This document shows, piece by piece, positions 1,060-57,720 of a DNA stretch of 64,000 nucleotides; position 1 is the stretch's first letter; each line of letters opens with the position of its first letter. Both the position numbers and the translations under genes were made by a program. The notes beneath the pieces are model-generated. The model searched no databases. It was not told where the DNA came from and saw only the letters and a list, made by a program, of their open reading frames with translations. The stretch is from Lytechinus pictus (Eukaryota). The stretch is taken from NCBI RefSeq assembly GCF_037042905.1, contig NC_087245.1, positions 9,240,001 through 9,304,000 on the forward strand, in the 5' to 3' direction.

Positions 1060-4000
1060 TTACGACTTTAGCACAGAACGAGGGAGATGATTCAGGTTAC
1101 TATGGATCCCTTTATTTATTCGGCTCGAACGCCGAGGACCATCACATGCATGTGCATCTGGTGACTGTACGACTGACTGGTCACCTGGGTGTGTTGAATC
1201 CCAAACAAAGATCAATGGGAGTTGTTCCTCATTACCAGCATCTTTGGCTTGGACCGTTATTGGGTCTTCGCACTTTTCATGCTGAAGGGAAGAGTCCTCA
1301 AATCCGCAAGGCATTCCATCATCCCTGGGGTCCTTGACGAGGAGTTTTCGATTCACTCTCATCATGCGACCACCCAACAATGGGCGGATTTCATACACGT
1401 CATCTGACATGTTTACCTTGGTAATGACATAGGGGTTGTTGTCAAATTTATCGGCCAGTTTATGCCTTCCGGTGAATGCACACTTTTTTAGGAGGACTCT
1501 AGTGCCAACTTTCAAGGGGTCACTCATTGGCAGTGCATCATGTCTTAGCTTCTCAGTCTGGAGTGTTGAAGAAATATTACTCTTAGCAGCCTCATGCGCC
1601 TGTTGAAGAGATATGGATTGCTCCTTGACATACTCTTCATTCCAGTCTCCATGCGTATTTCCTAGTAGTTGATCAAGAGGTGTGTATGGCTCTCTGCCAT
1701 ACAACAGATGAAAGGGTGAAAAACGTGTCACTTTATGTGGAGTGTAGTTGTAAAGTGACACTAGATGGCCTATAACATCTGGCCACTGTCGTCGCTCTGA
1801 TGAGGGAAGGGATCGGATCATTGCACAGAGAGTTCGATTGAACCTCTCAGTCTGACCGTTCCCTTGAGGGTGATACGGGGTCGTTCTTGATTTAGTGATT
1901 CCATACAACTGGCACAATTCACGTATGATAGCACTCTCAAAGTTTCTCCCCTGATCGGAATGGATCCTCAGGGGAACACCATAGTGTGCAAACCAGTGGG
2001 TCTGAAGAGCCTTGGCAACAGTAATTGCTGTCTGATCCTTACATGGTATAGCCTGTGCATACTTCGTAAATGCGTCTGTGACTATCAATACATCTTCATA
2101 GCCACCCTTCCCTTTGTCAAGTTTCAAGAAATCAATGGCCACAAGCTCCATTGGTTTGAATGCGAGAAGATGACGTCTTGGGGTGCGGATTGTAGGAGTT
2201 GGTGCTTTCGATTTGATACACGCAAAGCACTTTCGTACATGTTCTTTCACATCTTGATATAGTCCAGGCCAGAAGCATCGGTTGCGTAGCACTCCGATAG
2301 TCCTATCTACTCCTTGGTGACCCCATTCGTCATGAGCCATCTCCAGCATCCGTTTCCTCAACTTCTTTGGAGTGAGAAATTGCTTGGTTGATGTCTCATT
2401 AGCCTGTGGGGATCGACGATACAGTATACCATTCTCCTCCACTATGTGAGTATATTCCTTGAACCAGGATTTCACTTCTGAATTTTCTGTGTTCAGAATG
2501 TCTCCAGGTTTCCATCCTGATTGCCAACTCTTGCAAAGAACAGATAGTGTGTCATCTTCTTGTTGCATAGATGCTAACTGCTGCGGTGAGTACGAAGGAA
2601 ACACACATGGGACTGGTTTGGGAGATAAGTCCTGTTCCCTATCTTTGTCAACTACTTCTTCCGGGAGGATAGTGCTAACAGTTACCTCACCAATGATACC
2701 CTTGACCTCTTCCTCATTCTTTCCAGGATACCTACTCAGTGCATCTGCACAGCGATTTAGTCTCCCTGGTCTGTACCTGATCTCGAGGTTGAAGGGGGCA
2801 AGCTGCGCAGCCCATCTCTGCTCCGTAGCGCCAAGTTGTGCTGTCTGTAGGTGAGCAAGGGGGTTGTTATCGGTGAGCACAATGCATCTGGATCCCATCA
2901 GATAACCTTTGAATTTTTCAGCTACTGCCCACTTAAGGGCCAAGAGTTCAATTTTGAAGCTAGAAAAATCTGGATACCTCACTTCTGCTCCCCGTAGACT
3001 ACGACTAGCAAATGCTATTGGATGCCGTTGACCATCCTCTCCAGTCTGCGATAGGCAGGCTCCGAGGCCCTTTGAAGAAGCATCCACCTCTAAGGTGAAT
3101 TCTTGACCAAATCGTGGATAAGCAAGGATAGGGGTTATCGTTAGTTTGTCCTTCATCACTTGAAATGAATCATCAGCCTCCTCAGTCCACTCAAACTTCA
3201 TATCATCTTGACATTTGCTGCTCGAGTGTCTCTTTCCCGCTTTTGAGGATGTCTTGGCTCCAATCAGAGAATGGAGAGGGGCAGCAATTTTAGCAAACTC
3301 GGGAACAAATCTCCGATAATAAGACGCAAGTCCTAAGAACGATCGGAGTTCAGATGAAGTCTTGGGAGTTGGCCAATTTGCGACACGTTCTACCTTCCTT
3401 GGATCCACCATTACTCCCTTGTCACTGACGATGTGTCCCAGGTGTGTTAATTCTTTCTGAAAGAACTGGCATTTCTCTCCCCTCAATTTGAGGCCATGTT
3501 TATTGAGTCTGTCGAACACTTCCTCCAATCTTGCCAAGTGCTCCTCAAGTGTTTTCGAGAAGACAAGAATGTCGTCAAGATACAAGATAAGCTGTCTAAA
3601 GTTCAGGTCTCCAAATATCAGTTCCATTATGCGTTGAAAGGTGCAGGGACTGTTACAGAGGCCTTGAGGCATCCTTCCAAATTCGAAAAGCCCCCAGGGC
3701 ACCCGAAAAGCAGTTAGGGGGATTGAATCAGGATGCATGGCCACTTGATAATAACCATGAGAGAGATCAAGTGATGTGAAGTACTTTGCACCTTCCATTG
3801 CTTCCAAGGACTCATCTATCCGAGGCAAGGGAAAGGAATCCTTTACAGTTATTGCATTAAGCTGGCGATAGTCTATGCAAAGACGAATGGCCCCCGACTT
3901 CTTTCTCACCAGTACTACAGGACTGGCATAGGGACTTGATGAGCGTTTGATGATTTTTCTATCTAGCATGTCTTGCAGCAACTTTCGAACTTCTTCGGTT

Positions 4001-5214
4001 TCCCCAGGAGAAATCCTCCTATAAGGCATGCGTATGGATTTGTCAGCAATCGTTTTGATCTCATGAGGGATGAGATCACAGTACCCTAGATCAAATTCCC
4101 CGTTTGAGAAGGCACCAATGTTCTGTGAAAGGAGTACTGCTATTTGGCTGGCTTCCTCATATGGCATTCCTTCCAAGCTTATGCCAGCTGGCAATCTTGC
4201 TACGCCTCCATCTTTGAATCTGAATTCAGATACTCCTCTGTACTGGTTAGTTGATATCTGTTCCCGTATCACCTCTTCATGCTCAACGGCGTCACAAGCC
4301 ACGTTATCATTAGCAGTAGAGGTTATAATCTCATGAATGTCCACTTCGATTGAGCTCTCTACCAACTTTACACATACTTCTTTGCGTGATTCCATCAAAG
4401 ACGCAGATGCCAAATTCGAGTGAGGTGGTATGGTTACTTCAACTTCTCCAACATTAGCAACAAGAATATCCACTGTGTGATCCCCAGAGATGCAACCTTC
4501 TATCACTTCAAGGAAAGGTATTGATGCTTCCGAGTTAGCTTGTTTCACAAGCCACACATCATCTGACTTGTCTCCCTTGTTCTCGACCTGGGAACGATCC
4601 AAATGACACTGCATATGTCGGACTGTCCTTGGTGCAATCACCACCTGTTGTGACCCACTCACAACATGCTGTGTCCTTATCTGTTTCGTCTCACTCGCAA
4701 GATTTAGACAAGCCTTCGTTAACTCAAGGTCATCCATTTCCTCACCTAGAAGTGGTCTTAATCCATTGCTGCCAATAAGTATTGGAAACTCTTGTCGTTT
4801 GCCATAAGTTGACATCTTCTGTCCAATCAGAAATCCAACCACAGCTTCATGATCATCGATGCACACTCGGGCACGTACATACCCTTCAACTGGCACTTCA
4901 GTTCCCGAGATTCCAGTGATTTTTACTAAGGTTTCTAGCTTTTCAGGGCACCCAATTGCTGTTGTGAACTGAGAATGGAACACATCAGAAGGGATGATTG
5001 ACACTTCTGACCCAGTGTCTAAGATGCATCCAACATTAACACCAGCAACATTGGCTATTACTGTGGGGCTGGATGACACCAAAAGGTCCTTGATATTCAA
5101 ATTGGTGCCCTTCTCCTTAGCCTTTCCATCTGTCCCTTTTCCCGGGCTTTCAGTCCCTGTGTTGGCACACATGAAGTGGTCACTGGCCATGGGCTTTTGG
5201 TTCCTGAACCCCAC
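1060..5214 (-). CDS. pol: Pol polyprotein (aspartic protease, RT, RNase H, integrase); frame is open from 5256 and probably expressed as Gag-Pol
   Basis: 1384-aa uninterrupted ORF: LDTGS protease; LCIDYRQLN, MPQGL and YLDD in RT; VDAS...ELLA...TDNNPL RNase H; HDEWGH...CFAC zinc finger; AIDF/HSDQG/TERFN DDE integrase; GPY/F-like KLADKFDNNPY. Confidence 0.97.
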   Translation of the reverse strand: MGFRNQKPMASDHFMCANTGTESPGKGTDGKAKEKGTNLNIKDLLVSSSPTVIANVAGVNVGCILDTGSEVSIIPSDVFHSQFTTAIGCPEKLETLVKITGISGTEVPVEGYVRARVCIDDHEAVVGFLIGQKMSTYGKRQEFPILIGSNGLRPLLGEEMDDLELTKACLNLASETKQIRTQHVVSGSQQVVIAPRTVRHMQCHLDRSQVENKGDKSDDVWLVKQANSEASIPFLEVIEGCISGDHTVDILVANVGEVEVTIPPHSNLASASLMESRKEVCVKLVESSIEVDIHEIITSTANDNVACDAVEHEEVIREQISTNQYRGVSEFRFKDGGVARLPAGISLEGMPYEEASQIAVLLSQNIGAFSNGEFDLGYCDLIPHEIKTIADKSIRMPYRRISPGETEEVRKLLQDMLDRKIIKRSSSPYASPVVLVRKKSGAIRLCIDYRQLNAITVKDSFPLPRIDESLEAMEGAKYFTSLDLSHGYYQVAMHPDSIPLTAFRVPWGLFEFGRMPQGLCNSPCTFQRIMELIFGDLNFRQLILYLDDILVFSKTLEEHLARLEEVFDRLNKHGLKLRGEKCQFFQKELTHLGHIVSDKGVMVDPRKVERVANWPTPKTSSELRSFLGLASYYRRFVPEFAKIAAPLHSLIGAKTSSKAGKRHSSSKCQDDMKFEWTEEADDSFQVMKDKLTITPILAYPRFGQEFTLEVDASSKGLGACLSQTGEDGQRHPIAFASRSLRGAEVRYPDFSSFKIELLALKWAVAEKFKGYLMGSRCIVLTDNNPLAHLQTAQLGATEQRWAAQLAPFNLEIRYRPGRLNRCADALSRYPGKNEEEVKGIIGEVTVSTILPEEVVDKDREQDLSPKPVPCVFPSYSPQQLASMQQEDDTLSVLCKSWQSGWKPGDILNTENSEVKSWFKEYTHIVEENGILYRRSPQANETSTKQFLTPKKLRKRMLEMAHDEWGHQGVDRTIGVLRNRCFWPGLYQDVKEHVRKCFACIKSKAPTPTIRTPRRHLLAFKPMELVAIDFLKLDKGKGGYEDVLIVTDAFTKYAQAIPCKDQTAITVAKALQTHWFAHYGVPLRIHSDQGRNFESAIIRELCQLYGITKSRTTPYHPQGNGQTERFNRTLCAMIRSLPSSERRQWPDVIGHLVSLYNYTPHKVTRFSPFHLLYGREPYTPLDQLLGNTHGDWNEEYVKEQSISLQQAHEAAKSNISSTLQTEKLRHDALPMSDPLKVGTRVLLKKCAFTGRHKLADKFDNNPYVITKVNMSDDVYEIRPLLGGRMMRVNRKLLVKDPRDDGMPCGFEDSSLQHEKCEDPITVQAKDAGNEEQLPLIFVWDSTHPGDQSVVQSPDAHACDGPRRSSRINKGIHSNLNHLPRSVLKS

Positions 5215-5250
5215 CGTTTCGCCCTCAACAATGGAGCTAGTTAGTTTCCC
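5191..5250 (-). promoter_or_regulatory. -1 programmed ribosomal frameshift signal (G_GGA_AAC plus downstream stem/pseudoknot)
   Basis: Heptamer at 5250-5244 just before the gag TAA; pol lies in the -1 frame; a 6-nt spacer precedes an 11-bp stem. Confidence 0.8.
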
Positions 5251-6173
5251 GAATCTTCAATGACTGTTGTCCCAGCAGACATTTGCGGACAATTCCTTAT
5301 GTAATGTCCCATTTTATGGCACTTGTAACATGCGTCATTGTTCAATGATCTCTTCTTACCAGTTTTTAATCTGCGCACTGTTTCATTTAGTGATGTCACA
5401 TCTGTCTTTAGTCTTTCAACTTCAGACAAAATTGCCTTCTGTTGTTCTAGTATCTCCTTAAGGGTGCTTTGTTCAGACTTTGCTGTGGTTGTTGCTGTAT
5501 GGACAAACTCTGACTCCACCTCTCTAGCTCTAGGTTTTACAAAGGACATTGGTGCTTCTTGAAACAACCGTAGAGCTTCACTACGCACTGCACTGAAACC
5601 AGATTTTCCATGGTCAAGCTGGATACGTCGAAGTTCACGCCTAACAGAGGCATCGCGTGCTCCATTAACAAATTGGTCACACAACTCATGATCCTTCAAC
5701 TGTGTAAGGGCAGCTCGATCTTCCTTTTCTGCAGATTTCACCATCCTGCAATAGGTTCGCAAAAGTGATCTACTAAAGTCGCAAAGAGATTCTCCATCGT
5801 ATTGCTTGCGATTGTGAAATTCACTGCTAAGAGTTTGGGTTGTCTCTTGATATCCAAAACACAGTTTAAGGGCAGTCACAACTTCGTCGAAATCATGTCG
5901 TTTTTCATCCTGTAAGCACATAACTTCCTCTCGTGCTGAGCCTTCGAGATGATCAAGAAGTAATCTGGCCTTCTCGATGTTTGACAAATTGAATTGAGCT
6001 GTGACTTCCTCAAACTCTTCAAGCCATTCTGGAAGTGAAAGCTCACCCACACGTTCAGGATGCCCCTTAAACTTTGATAGGTGGCTCTGCGAGATTCCTT
6101 GCAGTCCCATTGATCGACGAAAGAATTGAGTCATCATATCTGTGTCAAGGGTTTGTCCTGACGTAGCATTCAT
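5241..6173 (-). CDS. gag: Gag (capsid plus CCHC zinc knuckle)
   Basis: 310-aa ORF between the PBS and pol; CYKCHKMGHYIRNC knuckle; retrotransposon capsid-like motif RKQYDGESLCDF. Confidence 0.93.
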   Translation of the reverse strand: MNATSGQTLDTDMMTQFFRRSMGLQGISQSHLSKFKGHPERVGELSLPEWLEEFEEVTAQFNLSNIEKARLLLDHLEGSAREEVMCLQDEKRHDFDEVVTALKLCFGYQETTQTLSSEFHNRKQYDGESLCDFSRSLLRTYCRMVKSAEKEDRAALTQLKDHELCDQFVNGARDASVRRELRRIQLDHGKSGFSAVRSEALRLFQEAPMSFVKPRAREVESEFVHTATTTAKSEQSTLKEILEQQKAILSEVERLKTDVTSLNETVRRLKTGKKRSLNNDACYKCHKMGHYIRNCPQMSAGTTVIEDSGN

Positions 6174-6461
6174 AGTGAAAGTAAGGCACTAATACAAATT
6201 AAAGGCACAGTTTGAAAGTAATAGGTATTGATACAACTGAAAGATTAGCTTAATTGTCACAACAGAGTTATATAATTCAGAATACTCAAAGTTCAAACCC
6301 GCCGTTAGTTTCCAGTGAACCGAGGCTGTCTCTTCACTTTCGCTACACAAAGTCCTAAAGTTTTTATCCGTTGATTCCACATTAGCTCCTGATCTTAATA
6401 CCCCATCGCAACAGTCTTGGTATTGCGTAGATCCTTTGATGAACTTGGTGAACAAAGCATC

Positions 6462-46170: not shown

Positions 46171-48053
46171 ATTAAGCAACATCTATAAAATAAGCAATCA
46201 ACTTAAGTACTTATATGCACTACATGTCATTATATGCAAGTCGAATTCATTTATCTTGTTTATTGCCTCTCGACTTGGTCCTTCTCTCATATCTTGACTT
46301 TGACTGCAGCTGTTCTCTTGGTTCCTAAGAAATAAGAAAATCAAGAAGGACGACTGGGAGAGAGTCTAGTCCACGCCCTATCACCGTGTACTTCCGTCTC
46401 TCATGTCGCCAATTTCCTCCAATTCAAACACGTCTTATAAACGCGTAAGATATAAGGAGAAAGAAAATAGAACGAAGGGGAACCTAAGCTAAAGAATATA
46501 AAAATACAACTATAGAGAATTTCATACTGTAATTATTTTACAAAATTCAATAAATCATCAATAAAATGTGGGTACCTATTATATTTACGCTAAATCTGCA
46601 GTTGTATTCATACAAAATGGAAAAGGTAGGGAATGCGTGGGAGTAAAATAATTGCATAACAAAGGACTAATACCCTTCTATCAAGACGTTATCAATCTGT
46701 GCCAATAGTTTTTTTTTTCTATGTTTCTATTCAATAATGCAAATTAAACCAGAATTATATTTTCGACCCTTTTGGAAAGTTCAGGACAGAATTTATCTTT
46801 GTATTTCAGAAGCTTATAACTCCAATCTCAGGCTGATTCTATTACATAAAATCTTACATATGTATGTGTTAATGTATCAACCAATCAGCTGTTTTACTTT
46901 CAAAATGGAGATAACTTTGATATACAATCTTTGAATGTAAATCATATTCTTATGTAAGCATTGCACAATTACTCCTCGGAATACTGCGTTGTATTATTTT
47001 CACATTTCTATATGACTGAACCGAAATTGAATTGAAGTGATTTAAAATGCCTTTTTAAACAAATAGATAAACATAAAATTTTACTGAAAAGCTATGAACG
47101 GAAAGAAGAGCATAAAGTAGAGTAAGGTGTGGGAAACGTCTAAACGAAATGCCAAATGTTATATCGGATGAGATAATCAGAGCCAATCTTCCCTTAATCC
47201 CTTGTAGTCACTCGAGAATATGATAGAGAGGAAGAATTAAAAAACAAATTTGTCAAAAGAAGTGAAGATGACAAGAACGAGGGGAGGGTAGGATTAGATG
47301 GTGAACCCTCTCTCACCCATCCCTGTCCCTCTGCATGAATAATGGCGTATCAAGTAAGGGGTACTTTTACAATTGGAGGGGGGTGTTTTATGAGAGCTAT
47401 GTAAATGGGAATTTCAAGAAAATACTGAGCTATATGATGACGGAGTGGGAGGTGGGTCCTGATTTCTTTTCCGGGAAGGTTGTTCTTTATTTGACATGTG
47501 AAATTAAAAAATAAATAAAATCACCATTCAATCACAGGAGCATGCTTCCCAACTCCCCCATCTTAACCAAGAGCACTCAGCTATCGTATTACTTAACGAT
47601 TCGATGTGGGTTTAAAACTCAACTTCCGACTGAATCTCCCTGCTCCTGTCTGCCAGTCGAGCTCAATCAAACCTGAGTAATTTGAAGTCCATAACAAACT
47701 AGCATGGGAAGACGAAAACAGGGGAAGCAACTTAGATAAAGATCCCCTTTTTAAGGAGATCGCGCGGAGATTTGCTGGCTCGTTTGGAGCTTGTAAAACT
47801 CGGATTGAAATGCAATTTGTCGAAATCATTCGGTTATTAAGGAAGTAAAGCAGCTCGACGTGTTCCACCTTTAGAGGATAAGGAGGGCTGATACGAGCAG
47901 GCATTCAGCGGAAGGTGCACGAGGGGAATTGGGCACGCCCTTACCAAAATCTTTTTCCGTCTCCTTATCCTATATGTGAAAAAAAAATTGGCACATATCT
48001 TTGATTCAACAGGTTTGTACATATCTAGTTGTGATACATGTATAGTTATGATG

Positions 48054-49766
48054 AGGGGCGGATCCAGCCTTAGTCAATGGGGGGCAGAATTATTTTCAGC
48101 AATATTTTCCCTGATCGGCCGCTCGAAGATGATTTTTGTTTGTTTCTTTGAAGGGTTATTCCTAATAGTCACTTCTTAGCTTTATTCTTATAAATCATCA
48201 TAAATCTATATCATAATCATTGTTTATATAAAGCGCGAGCTTTTTTGTTGTTGAAATTTTATGTATTTTTCCTAAAATTTGAACATTCTGGGCAATGTTT
48301 GTTATCCTGAAAAGATGTGTTTGCAACTAAATAATTACTGACTGCTTGCAGTTAGCCATGAAGAAGTTACATATTTCAACAGTGAAATAATACGAGCGCG
48401 AAGCGCGAGCTGACATTTCTATATAATCACTTTTTGTAACGTAAACAGAATAGGTATATAAATAAATGATGCGAGTGCGAGCGGAAAAAATCGAGATTTA
48501 GACCTAAAAACGGGACACTTTATTCATGTTTTGCAAATCATGAAAAGGATGAATAACATGGGAATTTCCTACATTAATAATGCGAGCACACAGCGCGAGC
48601 AGAACATTTTTGATAAATTGATCTGAAACTGGATAATAATTTAAATAGAGAACAAGTTGAGTTTCTGCACATGCGCGCGCGTGCTTCATATTTAGACCAA
48701 GAATCTAGCTATGCATTCTAAATACATCTTTTATCATAAAAATCTAAGCGAGTGCGAAGCGCGATCTTAAACTATTTGATATTTCGAGCTGAAAAAAAGA
48801 GTCAATTTCAGCTCTATTTTCAAGCACTTTGTAGGAAAATTGTGAGGTGGATTTGGATCGCACTTAATAAAGAGCTGATAATTTTCATTATTATTACTTT
48901 GAGTTTTGACGTAGGACCGGTACACCCTTACGACATGTCATCATACGAAAATGATGACTATCTTCCTATTCCTCTTGCTAAGCGTGAGATGAAACAAAAG
49001 GGACAATTTAATGATTAAATTAATATCTTATTTATTAATGCCTAATAAGGGCGCGAAATCTGATGATATTATGGCCTGAAAACCGGACATTTTAAGCACT
49101 TTTGAAATGAATAGGATGCATCAGTTAATACATCTTTAACCATTAATGCGAGCGCTAATCGCGAGCCAAAATTTTTGATAAACTGTCATGAAAAGGGTAT
49201 TTTAAGTAGTTTGTTGTATATAATCAATATTGAGACATACATAACTCGCCAAAATGTCAGCGTACAGCGCTAGCTGATCCATTTTGACAATCAGACCTGA
49301 AAAGGGATATTTTAAAAGCTTTATGGAATACACGAAATAAATAGGTACCTGATAAATCAAAATTTGCGAGCGCGCAGCGCGAGCAGAAAATTTTAATATT
49401 CAGGCCATTTAACTGACATTTTTACCGAGCAGTTTTTAAAAATCAATTTGGAAACCACACAAAATAATGAAAGTTCAACTTCCGAGGTGAAATATGTTTT
49501 GAATATTGAATCCAACTTGATATTTAAGCTCCATATTGAACAAGATATGTAAATCACCTAACAGGCAATGCGAGCGAAAATTTTATATAGTGACATGAAA
49601 GATTATTTTTATTTTCCAAGTCTCCCCTCAACTTATTTTATTCACTCGTCTTCCTCCTCTTCTTTTTTCTCCTCTCTTTTCACTCCCTTTTTTCTTTCTC
49701 GTCTTTTTTTTTTGCTCCGCCAATGGGGGGGGGGGCGGGCCCAGGGACCAAGCCCCACCCCGGATT
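48054..49766. mobile_element. Non-autonomous DNA element (hAT-like), right TIR eroded
   Basis: Left end AGGGGCGGATCCAG followed by a G-run; right G/C-run ending CCCCGGAT; periodic GCGAGCGCGAAGCGCGAGC motifs; TTATGAT on both flanks. Confidence 0.65.
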
Positions 49767-50929
49767 GATTATGATTCTTGACAAGATCTTGAAAACTTGT
49801 AATTTAGACCATTAAATATTAAAATGCTATCTCAGCATTGATAAAACAGAATAGATATACATAAAACCAGCTGCAAATTTCGAATTAACCGGATATTGCG
49901 CCCATACTTTTTAATGGCTAGAATACCCTTTGTTTTCCATGGTTTCAATCATTTCAAAAGATAATATTACCAAATTTATTTATGATATTTATGACACAAT
50001 CAATCATTTCTGTTGACAGTTTATTTCACATATCAATCATGGCCGGTACTAACTTCAAATTTTAGAGTATATAAATGTCAGGTTAACAAGTAAAAGGGCG
50101 AATGAGCTTGGAAAGGTGAACATGAAACTAGTTTTACGAGTTTAACTGCTTTTATCACTCTTTGTCGTAGATGTAAAGAGAGGGGCGTTTGGATAGTGTT
50201 GTTGACGAGACATAGAGGCGGGCTAATGGACTAGGAACAATGGGTTTACCCTCCATTAACATATCTCTAGCCTAAGTAATAAAAAATAGTGGACTGTAGA
50301 TCATTCACCCACACATCACAATAGGCATAAATTCAAAGTCACTGCACATGTATACAGTATTTAATTACAGTATAGCTGAATGAAATCGAATACCTTATTT
50401 ATTTTCATATCATAAATGATACGATTCACAATGTAACAAAGAGAAAGGTAAAACAAAATTCATGAAGAGTAATAATCTTTGTATACACATTTTTCATCTG
50501 TAGGTGTCGCCCGTCACCCCTTCTACCACTCACTACTCAACCCCCCCCCCCCCCACCCCCTCCTCTATCCTCTTACTGACTCGCATACACTGATATTTAC
50601 ACACAGCACTAAACACATCACACATTTTCACATTCAGATCCTTCTTTACATTAAAAAAGTCTCCTATCTCATTCTATATAATGTTTATATTGTATTCACA
50701 TCCATGAATAAAACGTGGCATTGAGCCCTAGAATAAAAAAATAAAGTTAACATAATCAGAGATTATACACATGTATTTTTATTCAAGCAAATCTGTGAAT
50801 GCTATCCCCCGTTTCATAATTTTTTTTTTATTCAACCAAACGTTCATCCATTTCAGAAGTAAATGAAGGTAAGACTTGGTCTCTCTCTTTCATCCCCCGC
50901 ACCACACTTTTCTGGGTTTTTTGTGTTTT

Positions 50930-51105
50930 TAACAAGTGCACACCTAGATACCAATAATAGCATTTTCATTTATTTGAATGCAGGATAAAGGAGCATTGTC
51001 AATTAACTGCCTTGCTCACGGACATAGGTGCCGCGGCCGGGGATCGAACCCCGGACTTTCTATGTGTAGTCAGGTGCCTTAGACCACTCGGCAACGGCAC
51101 CTCCA
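50930..51105 (-). mobile_element. tRNA-derived SINE
   Basis: Minus-strand A box TTGCCGAGTGG and B box GGTTCGATCCC, then GTCCGTGAGCAAGGCA. Confidence 0.75.
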
Positions 51106-51193
51106 AACACCCACCCATCACACCCACAGAGTAAAATCGGGGACTCACTTATGATTAATCGTCAAAGTAGGGACATATGTATATATCTATGTA

Positions 51194-51260
<67 letters not shown>

Positions 51261-51269
51261 GTCAGATGT

Positions 51270-51336
51270 GTCAGATAGACAGATTTTCGACACTACACCA
51301 ATAATTGGTATAGTGTCGAAAATCTGTCTATCTGAC
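51270..51336. repeat. 67-bp near-perfect palindrome
   Basis: 33-bp arms around a single central A (51303); one mismatch (51296/51310). Confidence 0.97.
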
Positions 51337-51372
51337 GGTCAATCGGATCGGGGTCGCCCTAGCCACTAACCC

Positions 51373-51444
51373 GTCTCTGTGGTCTAGTGGTTAAGGCACT
51401 GGCGTTCAAAGCTGGGGGCCCGGGTTCGATTCCCGGCAGAGACA
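51373..51444 (+). tRNA. tRNA-like gene with anticodon TCA (opal-suppressor-like; tRNA-Glu-like scaffold), followed by T6
   Basis: Acceptor GTCTCTG/CAGAGAC; D stem GTCT/AGGC; anticodon stem CTGGC/GCTGG with loop GTTCAAA; 4-nt variable loop; T stem CCGGG-TTCGATT-CCCGG; discriminator A; TTTTTT at 51445-51450. May be repeat-borne and non-functional. Confidence 0.65.
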
Positions 51445-52498
51445 TTTTTTCGGCATCACCAATTTTTCCAAAGGGTAGATAGCTCTGGGGAACCTTGATT
51501 TAAGCTACGCCTACCATTGTTCTCTTCATCCATTTCTTTACAATATATATATTTCAGCCCATGTCAGCACCTCCACTGAAAAAATCCTTCCCAGGGCCCT
51601 GCCAGGGAGGTCCCCAGAAGCAGGTCATTACAAACTCACAAATGAAGATTCAGAGATTGACATTGTCAGTTTGGGACAATATTAAAATATATCTATATTG
51701 TTGACGTTGGTATTTGCAAGAAGGGTGTGAAAAGAAGGAAAATGTGAACAAAGAACCGAAAATAATGTTATTCAAGCGAATAGCAGAGGAAACGAAAGAA
51801 TAATAAGTCACAGATGTAGAGAGAGAGAGAGAGAAAGAAAGGAAGAAAGGGAGAGTAGTTGAGTGGCTTACGGTTTAGTGGTACTAAGCCTGTCATTCCC
51901 GCCTGCTCCTTCCCATTGTAACCACGATAACAGCCTGCTAACAACAAAACCTCAGCAGCTGTCTGAGTATAGATGTCATTAGAATTATGGTTTTAGACAA
52001 ATCTCCCTTAATCTCGAAGGAAATTTACCTGCTACCTGTGCGTAAGGGATCCTAAATGGGGCTGGTGTCACACTCCCAATCATCAACCCTATAATATACG
52101 TAAAATTTTCTTTCAATTGTATGGAATCATAAGGCCTTAGACCGATATGCGAATTTTCATCAACTGCAAAGTGAGGGTCTTTTTAACTATGCGCTGATAT
52201 GCAAGAGCACATAGTTTGGGACTGTTCGCAATGGGATCAGGTACGTCCTCAGTCTGCAATGTGTCCTTGGTTCAAATGTGAAGTTCGTGTGGGTGTGTGT
52301 AGGGCGTGGGGGTGACCTCCCTTTTACCAGTGTGTGTGCCTTCACACCTCACATACACTCACATGTATTTCACAGGTCTACCAATTCTTCATTTTAATTT
52401 TGATTGTGTAAGGAGCATCAAGGAACAATGATTATGAATGTGCAGAATTTTAATTGTTCGGTGGGGGGAATCCATTGAGCGTGACCTCTCCATCAAAA

Positions 52499-53190
52499 GG
52501 CCCCCTCACACCTAACCGAATTGCCTGAAATATGCCTTGCGATGGCTGGCGAAAGGCATTTATTAAGAAATCGCTTTCAATGGTGACTGATAGTAAATCA
52601 TATTTGCCCTTCGTGTTTGGGTTCGTACACCTTCTGAATTAACAGCTGCAATTATTCAAATTCGCGCGGAAATTTTGAACATGTTTAATATTTCCGACGA
52701 ATTGAGAAATCGTTGGTCATCTGTTTGAATTCGCATCTCTTATTTAGTCTGCGGTAATCGTTAGTTTATCGTTCGTGTTTTATTATCGCGCATAGTCCCT
52801 CATCGCGCTTTTGCCAAAGTGGACCGATCTCGAAAGAACCCGTAACGAAGCAACACGATGACACAACGAACAAGATTGCCCGATCTATTCCCTCGTCTTC
52901 GTTTCTAATCGCACGCCATATCAAACCATTGCTCACTGTTCGTTCGTCTTATTGGGTTATATCAACCCTACGCTGGCCTTCGGCCGCAATTTTCTCAAAA
53001 AGGTGAACCGAAAAATCGATATCCTTCGCATGTCATAATTATCCTTCGCTTACCGTTCGTTGATAAAATTTGACAAGAGTTACTGATCGCATGATTTGAC
53101 TGAAATTTTATTTGAATTCGCGTGCATTTCGTTAATTTTTCCCATTCGTCACCCTTCGTCCGCCTACTTTCGGTCAGGTGTGAGGGGGCT
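52499..53190. mobile_element. PIF/Harbinger-like MITE (older)
   Basis: TIRs GCCCCCTCACACCTAACCGAA / TTCGGTCAGGTGTGAGGGGGC; flanks AAA and TAA. Confidence 0.75.
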
Positions 53191-55189: not shown

Positions 55190-57720
55190 ACAATAACAAT
55201 GGAATAATTTACTACGACATTTCAGACCATTTATCCATATTCACAATTTGTAAAGATAATAGACATTTACAAAACAACAAAATATAGAAAATATTACCCG
55301 ATGAAAAGAGACTAAACGTAACATAGAAACTTTTAAAACTGATTTGAGTGCATATGATGTATTTTTAAATTTACTATGATAAAAATGTACCTCTGATAAG
55401 AATTAAACTAACTAAAAAGAAGAATAAACAACCATGGATCACTCAAGGCATTATTAAATCAATACTCACTCGTAATAGATTATATAAAATATCACTAAAA
55501 TCACCTACTCAAGAACATAAAAACAAATACAAAAAATATCGTAATAGATTAACGTCAATAATCCGTTTGGCACGCAAATCGTACTTTTCGAACAAAATTG
55601 AAAATATTAAAGATAATAATAAAACATTATGGCACACAGTAGACGAAATGTTAGGTAAGAAAACGTATGATCTTAACAATGTTGATTTCCTTCTAAACGG
55701 ACACACAACGAAAAACCCCTCCGAAATTGCTGAAGCATTTAATTCTTTTTTCTCCAAGTTGGTCCTAACCTTGCATCTAGCATTGTGACTAATACCAACA
55801 ACTTTTCTACATATTTACATAACAATGCCGAACATTCTTTATTTTTTAATCCTTCTAATCTTCATGAAATTTTAGAAATCGTCCAATCCTTGAAATCTAC
55901 TAAATCTTGTGGCCATGATGGTATCAGTGTACATTTACTAAAACAAATTATTCATTTTGTGGCTTCTCCCCTTGTGCATATTTTCAATTTATCTCTTTTA
56001 AAGGGAATTTTCCCGGATCAACTCAAACTTGCAAAAATAATCCCCATATACAAAAAAAGAAGACCCTTGCCAAATTGCTAACTACCGCCCTATTTCATTA
56101 CTACCAAGCATATCCAAAATACTTGAAAAAAATTGTTTATAAACGACTATATTCTTTTCTGGACACAAACCAATTATTAATTCCCAACCAATACGGCTTT
56201 AGGAAAAATCACTGAAGTGACTATGCAATCTTACAATTATATGATAAAATAACAGATTCACTTTCCAAAAAAGAGCACACCGTTGGGGTTTTCATGGATC
56301 TATGGAAGGCATTCGATACCATTAATCATCATATATTGTTGTGTAAATTAAAGACATATGGAATTAGAGGAATCGTACTTTCTTGGTTTAAAGACTATTT
56401 AAATAATAGACGTCAATTTGTTAATTTTACACCCAAATCATCTAATACATGTCCCGTTAAATGTGGAGAACCTCAGGGTTCAATCCTAGGCCCCTTATTA
56501 TTTTTAATCTATATGAATGATATTGTAAATGCATCACCTTTACTTACATATGTTTTATTCGCAGACGACACTTACATATTTTATTCACATCAGAACTTAA
56601 AAATTCTTGTCGCAACTCTAAATCAAGAATTAAAAAAATATCATTAGGGTTAAAATCAAATAGACTCTCCCTTTACATAAATAAAACAAACTTCATGTAC
56701 TTTAAACATATTAATTCTAAACACGTGTTTCGCGATATCATTTATCGAAAAACAGGAAACAAAATTTTTAGGTGTATTGATCGATTCTAACGTAACATGG
56801 AGTAGTCACATTCGTAATATTAGCATGATGATTGCAAGGGCCATAGGCATTTTGTACAAATTGAAATATTATCTCAAAGATCATTACTAATGCTTTATAA
56901 CTCCTTTATTTTGTCACACGTTTCTTACTGTAACATAGCATGGGGAAATAGTAACAAAATAAAAATAGACTCGATATTACGCCTTCAAAAGAAAGCTCTT
57001 CGTATTTGTTTTCACTCTCATTATCTCGCCCATACTGATCCAATATTTCATTATTTTAAGACATTAAAAATTTACGATATTCACACTTATCAAACTGCCA
57101 TTTTCATGTATAAATTTTCCAACAACACTATTCCAGCATCCTTCCGTAATATTTTTGTTTACAACAGAGACATTCATTCATACCCTACACGACATTCATC
57201 TGACTTTCACCTAACAAATCCAAAAATAATAATTGCTCACAAAACAATACGTCATCACGGTCCTGAAGTTTGGAACACTTTGCCTAATAACATTAAACAA
57301 GCTACATCTCTTTTTTCCTTTAAAGCTTTGTTAAAGAGGTTTCTTGTATCAAAGTATTTGTAACAATCTCACCTGCACGTGCACCCACATCTGCACCCAC
57401 TTCACCTGACCTCTATACCCTCTCCCCTTTTTTTCTTAACATTCCAAATAATTATGTGACATCATTATTATAGATCCGTGAATTTTTCTGTACAATGGTT
57501 TTCATGTAGCCCCCTTCCTCTGGCTGCTATTCTCTCAAGCATTTTGCTTACGATAGCTGGCCACTGCATTTTATTTTATATATTATTGCTTACATGTATA
57601 TCTATGTAAATTATTCTATTATGTAATCGTCACAATTTGTAATTCTTTCATTTATTTTTGTATTTCTTTATATTCATTATGATTACTGTGTTTCATATAT
57701 TTTCAATAAATGCAGAAACA
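55190..57720 (+). mobile_element. Decayed non-LTR retrotransposon ORF2 (CR1/Crack/Daphne group) with 3' UTR
   Basis: End of APE domain ISDHLSIF; KSCGHDGI; FPDQLKLAKIIPIYKK; MDLWKAFDTINH; PQGSILGPLLFLIYMNDI; LFADDT; many frameshifts and stops; AATAAA near 57706. Confidence 0.93.

Follow-up and report, generated by a model that had tools for sequence, protein, structure and literature searches.

A tRNA-like module and its surroundings

The 64-kb stretch of DNA analysed here (the window) contains a single tRNA call, a 72-nt cloverleaf with stems of 7/4/5/5 and a variable region of 4 nt, for which ARAGORN reads the anticodon tca and the Rfam model RF00005 gives 57.7 bits (E 7.6e-10). The anticodon TCA occupies positions 51406-51408, with C35 at 51407 and a G at position 32 (51404). 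The cloverleaf, the A and B boxes, U33, A37, TCA, G32 and the T6 run were all as described in an initial annotation made from the sequence. Both of the wobbles that it had listed in the anticodon stem are present in this copy, but U28-G42 is a private decay of the window copy and not a family trait, the majority in genome matches and RNA-seq reads being C28-G42. Folded alone, the window copy does only moderately better than shuffled sequences (z -2.1). The module has the UCA anticodon in common with tRNA-Sec (RF01852), from which it had been set apart in the annotation, and rightly so: the 35 matches to RF01852 exclude the window copy, which is 72 nt long with a 7/5 fold and a short variable region, and the genome holds a separate true tRNA-Sec of 86 nt (G000:C2:54020026; RF01852, 76.9 bits).

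The other elements found in the window are listed with the module in Table 1. The Gypsy-type retrotransposon encodes a Gag of 315 aa (PNMA, Retrotrans_gag, zf-CCHC) and a Pol of 1398 aa (RT, RNase H, integrase). The AT-rich stretch is probably a non-autonomous DNA element.

Table 1. Features of the 64-kb window, with positions counted from its first nucleotide
Feature	Position	Strand	Basis or remark
Gypsy-type LTR retrotransposon	1060-6188	-	Open gag and pol frames
AT-rich 1.7 kb, G/C-rich at its ends, in which GCGAGCGC-type motifs recur	48040-49770	none	Sequence
Ordinary tRNA-headed SINE-like repeat, unrelated to the unit	50990-51103	-	Insertion follows 170 bp downstream
(TA)n/(CA)n microsatellite target, 5' side	51175-51257	none	Sequence
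Inverted 5' piece, unit positions 339-374	51270-51305	-	Same unit as direct segment
Directly oriented segment of the insertion, covering unit positions 339-410 and 1-185	51301-51552	+	Ends at the first fixed 3' end
Masking arm; predicted partners are tRNA nt 7-25 and 45-80	51317-51372	+	Folding; register same in subfamily B
tRNA-like module, cloverleaf with A and B boxes	51373-51444	+	ARAGORN, Rfam, comparison of subfamilies A and B
T6 run, Pol III terminator-like	51445-51450	+	Predicted partner of the upstream arm in the rod
Putative relic of a Neptune hammerhead (stem III, cleavage-site motif) that lacks the catalytic core	51478-51509	+	Motif comparison
MITE-like element, 21-bp inverted arms 648 bp apart	52500-53189	none	Inverted arms
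Broken LINE-type reverse transcriptase pieces	55369-57363	+	ORFs, Pfam

The module belongs to an abundant repeat family

The cloverleaf is one module of an abundant non-coding repeat unit of 406-412 bp, which we number from nt 1 of the tRNA. A pattern running from box A to box B, with the anticodon arm left free, gave 1,946 matches in the genome. Among the first 100 matches listed, 97 belonged to the family (94 TCA, 2 TCC and 1 TTA; 33 of them sit in one array) and 3 were true tRNA-Glu genes. The exact 77-nt sequence, that is the 72-nt majority followed by five T, is present in 1,165 copies (744 on one strand and 421 on the other), a number inflated by arrays. These arrays are near-identical: the one on C2 runs to 44 units of 406 bp each (G000:C2:8866121-8883655; L092, L130, L131), and another on C4 (L342) has at least 8 units. 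The strand bias of the exact copies hints at larger arrays elsewhere. Four pairs of loci with near-identical flanks on the same contig (L146/L147, L009/L010, L021/L022 and L111/L113) are either segmental duplications or uncollapsed haplotypes, and they also inflate the copy counts. The metagenome contigs searched for the family gave 0 matches.

The insertions consist of partial head-to-tail runs with scattered 5' ends, and an inverted 5' piece is often present. Their 3' ends are far more regular: 152 of 201 distinct ends fall into two clusters, at unit positions 180-188 (66 ends) and 222-240 (86 ends), and 142 of these 152 continue into a (TA)n or (CA)n microsatellite. The window insertion runs on its 3' side into (TA)n at 51544-51553, and its inverted piece forms with the direct segment a 33-bp hairpin (51270-51336). 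Outside the C2 array, which was left out of this comparison, units have variants in common about 7-fold more often within an insertion than between insertions (1.09 against 0.16 per 100 nt), as would be expected from a rolling monomer or from a homogeneous source array. The copy number and this anatomy bear out the suggestion in the annotation that the module is carried by a mobile element. The fixed 5' end at a tRNA head and the body leading to a 3' tail that mark a SINE were not found in the unit.

Affinity with Penelope-like elements

Penelope-like elements (PLEs) are described as inserting in tandems with 5' inversions and an optional tail at (TA)n targets, and two 3' ends lying 40-50 nt apart correspond to the PLE "tail" in the same accounts (PMC8557442, PMC11167929). 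The unit shows both sets of traits: partial tandems with scattered and often inverted 5' ends, and two 3' ends with an optional tail in a microsatellite target. Because of its partial tandems, 5' inversions and two fixed 3' ends in microsatellites, we assign it to the Penelope-like passengers; the family is almost certainly a tRNA-bearing, ribozyme-less passenger of these elements.

Many PLEs are present in the genome, with open frames of 726-1026 aa. Pfam searches on two of them returned RT together with a weak GIY-YIG match for one and no match at all for the other, and the clade names used here, Neptune and Hydra/Nematis, reflect our own reading of the domain order. The family was found in 26 of 130 loci around PLE ORFs (678 kb; some of the loci overlap or are duplicates, and two had seeded searches), against a density on C1 of roughly one to two family insertions per Mb. 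The PLEs neighbouring unit copies are separate insertions into the same microsatellites. At one locus (L091:3524-5640) the inverted end of a Neptune-type PLE directly abuts position 150 of a unit copy, through either insertion into the PLE or a template switch.

A short motif may link the unit with the Neptune-type elements of this genome. Four types of Neptune pLTR carry GA(A/T)AGCT...GC(T/A)ACG 26-37 nt upstream of the (TA)n junction, and at the end of all four stands a hammerhead with GAAAGCT...GC(T/A)ACG as its stem III. The counterpart in the unit, GATAGCT...AAGCTACG, stands 37 nt ahead of the first 3' end. The CUGANGA core of the hammerhead is absent from both strands of the unit and an Rfam ribozyme search of the unit gave no match, so a hammerhead or other ribozyme in the unit was rejected. 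The unit presumably descends from a retrozyme of the Neptune type whose catalytic core has been lost. Its likeness to the 3' ends of autonomous PLEs is confined to this short motif, with no extended similarity across 80 PLE loci. An autonomous element using the unit as its pLTR was sought as well, and none was found in the loci with paired copies or in the 80 PLE loci.

The cloverleaf is conserved by compensatory change

An older subfamily, B, gave 57 matches, and 28 of its loci were compared after two duplicates had been removed. Subfamilies A and B are identical at 62 of 72 positions in the tRNA, against 61% and 68% in the flanks, and the 10 differences in the tRNA leave all 21 pairs intact. 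Three of the stem changes are two-sided (2:71, 6:67 and 28:42) and two are one-sided, none of the five being disruptive. With the boxes held fixed and the differences placed at random, all pairs were kept in 0.8% of the trials, and the three two-sided changes arose as well in only 0.02%. In a set of 12 natural copies, which covers two lineages and hence few independent events, 96.8% of the cells pair, a value that none of 500 shuffles reached. Since the stems covary between A and B, the cloverleaf fold is, judging from these alignments, under selection, in agreement with the earlier proposal that the structure is maintained. A third, more distant subfamily was not found in ~1.5 Mb of loci searched with a profile of A and B, nor among 27 further matches.

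The origin of the module is harder to assign to one gene. Its D loop and T arm are those of the genome's tRNA-Glu, as had been noted, but they are equally those of tRNA-Gly(TCC), and in subfamily B the 5' strand of the acceptor stem and the 3' strand of the D stem are those of the host tRNA-Arg(CCT). No single parent stood out among the host tRNA types retrieved, with Arg-CCT, Gly-TCC and Glu matching at 43-53 of 72 positions. Read from these matches, the parentage of the module is mosaic.

The anticodon looks like a passenger

Over 194 distinct contexts the anticodon is TCA in 181 and TCC in 6, the latter at different loci, so that TCA stands as the consensus anticodon, as it does among the family matches listed above. 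Subfamily B also has TCA; this retention is unremarkable, since at the divergence of the flanks three bases would stay unchanged by chance about one time in three. As the TCC branch of A is mobile too, the UCA anticodon looks like a passenger. In the loop, G32 is found in 179, C35 in 191 and A32 in 8 of the 194 contexts, the A32 copies forming a cluster on C21. Copies at L059/L060 and L013 carry U33A, which turns loop positions 32-35 into a perfect palindrome that would fully pair the splice helix predicted below.

These data bear on the opal-suppressor role raised in the annotation, in which the module would be a working UGA suppressor tRNA, for instance for stops in a partner ORF. Such a role would agree with the presence of TCA in both subfamilies and with a fold, boxes and terminator that are complete in 1,165 identical copies, and some Naiad PLEs are described as encoding UGA-containing selenoproteins (PMC8557442). 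The module has the cloverleaf, A and B boxes and terminator of a decoding tRNA; however, it lacks the pyrimidine at position 32, which the host tRNA types examined have, as well as a full synthetase identity set. With no A20 (Arg), no long arm (Ser/Sec) and no C36 (Gly), it would presumably not satisfy the corresponding synthetases. The mobile TCC branch and the chance retention of the anticodon also argue against decoding. Moreover, the long PLE frames are open without UGA, the stops seen in 26 of 150 endonuclease matches are of mixed type, and no partner ORF needing UGA read-through was found in the two PLE clades. We therefore regard suppression as very improbable.

A predicted rod-like unit and a predicted hybrid tRNA in two-unit transcripts

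The unit as a whole is predicted to fold into a rod (z -6.7 as a linear and -9.9 as a circular RNA), a short and highly self-paired tandem unit like those of retrozymes. In this rod the 56 nt upstream mask the tRNA: the acceptor, D and T stems are lost and the anticodon arm alone remains (probability 1.0). In A and B alike, 41 positions of the tRNA find their partners in the upstream arm, 12 of them with a changed type of pair, and five decayed natural stretches of B gave z values from -0.6 to -6.5. The rod could be retained for stability alone. The changes in the 5' strand of the acceptor stem fall in the rod's loop, which argues that selection acts on the cloverleaf independently of the rod.

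A transcript of two units, from nt 1 of the first tRNA to the second T6, is predicted to fold differently. In 4 of 4 natural dimers a hybrid acceptor stem forms between the first and the second tRNA (probability 0.65-0.99), the D arm of the first and the T arm of the second are partly formed, and the rod lies in between. The two anticodon arms favour their own hairpins, the form with exchanged partners costing ~0 to +2.8 kcal/mol and the pairs of a bulge-helix-bulge 5 more.

We propose a model in which the unit is matured by TSEN, the endonuclease of tRNA splicing, instead of a hammerhead, the module also starting Pol III transcription; we hold the chances of this to be about even. Pol III would start at the module and pass the first T6, and the rod, by masking one tRNA in its 3' half and the following one in its 5' half, would leave one hybrid tRNA body. 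If the anticodon stems then exchanged partners, the outcome would be a pre-tRNA in which nt 37 is followed by an intron one unit long. Its two GUUC loops could pair as G32:C35', two U-U and C35:G32', with flanking 3-nt bulges (36-38), that is as a bulge-helix-bulge in which G32 and the C35 of the next copy would make the anticodon-intron pair. TSEN would cut twice at 37/38 (between 51409 and 51410 in the window copy), RtcB would close the unit into a circle unless a linear rod starting at nt 38 persists, and a Neptune-type RT/GIY-YIG protein would copy it into (TA)n. The fuller history, in which a retrozyme lineage gave up its hammerhead in favour of a tRNA mimic, two tandem copies pass for a single intron-containing pre-tRNA, the unit is excised and made circular by the host's TSEN and RtcB, a Neptune RT inserts it into (TA)n and a spliced UCA "tRNA" is left as a by-product, we put forward tentatively, with slightly less confidence than the splicing step itself.

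Several known properties of tRNA splicing agree with this proposal. TSEN is described as reading the tRNA body (PMC10485636), RtcB as circularising introns (PMC4536317), and a proximal G-C pair was found in flies and in human cells to serve as well as C-G, weak middle pairs being favoured (PMC6614914). The odd G32 would be accounted for by its pairing with C35' at the predicted splice site, base 36 staying free. Other observations count against it. The natural metazoan tRNA introns described reach ~250 nt (PMC4536317), less than the 408 nt here. The model requires read-through of T6, which is also found in subfamily B, and of a T5 15 nt later; in yeast, T6 is leaky and a second signal lowers read-through (PMC4937561). 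The A32 cluster on C21 and four loci in which the pair 3:70 is broken also speak against splicing, as does the folding cost of the exchanged anticodon stems.

Insertions that begin at nt 38

A cut at 37/38 should give rise to insertions beginning at nt 38, a prediction that was set beforehand. The pattern used, nt 38-71 with any base but A in front, matched 12 times, and 4 of these matches are insertions that begin exactly there. All four follow directly on (TA)n at separate places (two on C4, one on C5 and one on C8), two being single pieces (38-227/235) and two arrays. Three of their junctions can also be read as nt 39, one A being common to the unit and the microsatellite, and two of the four insertions have private variants in common. 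The remaining 8 matches were six point changes at nt 37 and two irregular cases. Among other 5' ends abutting a microsatellite only 1 of 36 lies within positions 1-75, and in the PLE-neighbour set 0 of 8 lie below position 130. A rough expectation of 0.2-1.2 starts gives P of 0.0001-0.03, and an expectation of 2 gives P 0.14. As the count has no control position of the same design, we take these starts as support and not as proof. The inversion junctions show no clear excess at 37-41; one unselected copy of A and one of B start at 37-40 at inversion junctions with microhomology, which is within chance. Three candidates for 3' ends at nt 37 (L082, L308 and L331) were not clean microsatellite junctions and were left uncounted.

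The 5' ends also bear on the processing by RNase P and RNase Z proposed in the annotation. These enzymes read the acceptor and T stems, which in this family covary or stay invariant, and by cutting out the cloverleaf or cutting its ends, in a mascRNA-like manner, they could define the unit RNA. A 72-nt contig in RNA-seq run X1 (record 6) spans exactly 51373-51444, as such a product would, although contigs cannot show RNA ends. However, the 199 5' ends are scattered, with only 5 at 408-3 and 5 at 72-77, so that there is no excess at nt 1 or 73 and the data point instead to the anticodon loop. Cutting at both ends would remove the tRNA from the progeny, yet the arrays keep it, and the acceptor stem is predicted to be masked in the long RNA. 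We consider this route improbable.

Presence in long RNA

In three RNA-seq runs, with reads mostly 90-95% alike, the unit was covered evenly on both strands, which shows that the family is present in long RNA. Reads cross the unit junction, as reads from arrays and from circles alike would. TCA is the majority anticodon in the reads; among the matches listed, 23 of 595 reads carry A>T at base 36. The read ends did not pile up in the three runs, and neither cleavage nor a circle nor a Pol III transcript was seen.

Such data are in keeping with a rival reading, in which the module does no more than act as a Pol III/TFIIIC promoter and form part of the rod, and the templates come from read-through or host array transcripts with no TSEN step. 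The whole insertion anatomy fits it, the two subfamilies have the same A and B boxes, long RNAs span the arrays on both strands and across unit junctions, homogeneous arrays of up to 44 units are at hand as possible sources, and a PLE protein is described as using uncleaved RNA in vitro (PMC11167929). A promoter, however, needs the boxes alone, and the two-sided changes in the 5' strand of the acceptor, within the rod's loop, would be superfluous; G32, the spared anticodon arm and the starts at nt 38 are likewise left unexplained. We consider this reading less likely than maturation by splicing, to which it is the strongest rival.

Significance and comparison with known systems

If maturation by TSEN is correct, the family would be the first mobile element living as a tRNA intron circle. 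A selfish RNA would then mature via tRNA splicing, giving tricRNA biogenesis a natural parasite and Penelope-type passengers a new route to unit-length templates, and the unit would offer a natural design for expressing a circular RNA of 400 nt. Even if it is false, annotation of this genome will mistake more than a thousand perfect UCA "tRNA genes" for suppressor or Sec tRNAs, and the host's tolerance of so many is a fair question. In searches of an open-access literature library, neither this family nor a TSEN-dependent retroelement came up.

The closest known systems, from the accounts available, include the animal non-LTR retrozymes (Cervera and de la Pena 2020, PMC7229834; Li, Clavereau and Pollet 2026, 10.64898/2026.07.22.740005). 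They are likewise non-coding head-to-tail repeats of 150-450 bp and low GC, with highly self-paired RNA, derived non-autonomously from PLE pLTRs, and their circles are closed by RtcB, a step that we propose for the unit. Each retrozyme unit has a type I hammerhead, whereas ours has no hammerhead core and carries a selected tRNA fold in its stead; the word "tRNA" never occurs in the main text of the 2026 report. The EN+ PLEs (Neptune, Naiad and Hydra) and the non-autonomous Chlamys such as MRC1, as portrayed in PMC8557442 and PMC11167929, resemble the unit in that they insert at (TA)n as partial tandems with 5' inversions and may carry a 3' tail, and the short 3' motif of the unit is like that of the Neptune-type pLTRs of the genome. 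Unlike the EN+ PLEs, the unit has no ORF, resembles autonomous elements in a short motif only and contains an internal tRNA module.

The tRNA-derived SINEs, too, are mobile non-coding repeats with Pol III boxes of tRNA origin. In the unit, by contrast, the tRNA is internal and followed at once by T6, its cloverleaf is selected, there is neither a fixed 5' end at the tRNA head nor a poly(A) tail, and insertion is tandem and inverted. The tricRNA pathway, as far as it is set out in PMC4536317, PMC6614914 and PMC10485636, would be alike in the predicted pre-tRNA body, an intron after nt 37, strong proximal and weak middle pairs and a circular product; here, however, the predicted "intron" is a mobile unit of 408 nt and involves two tandem copies.
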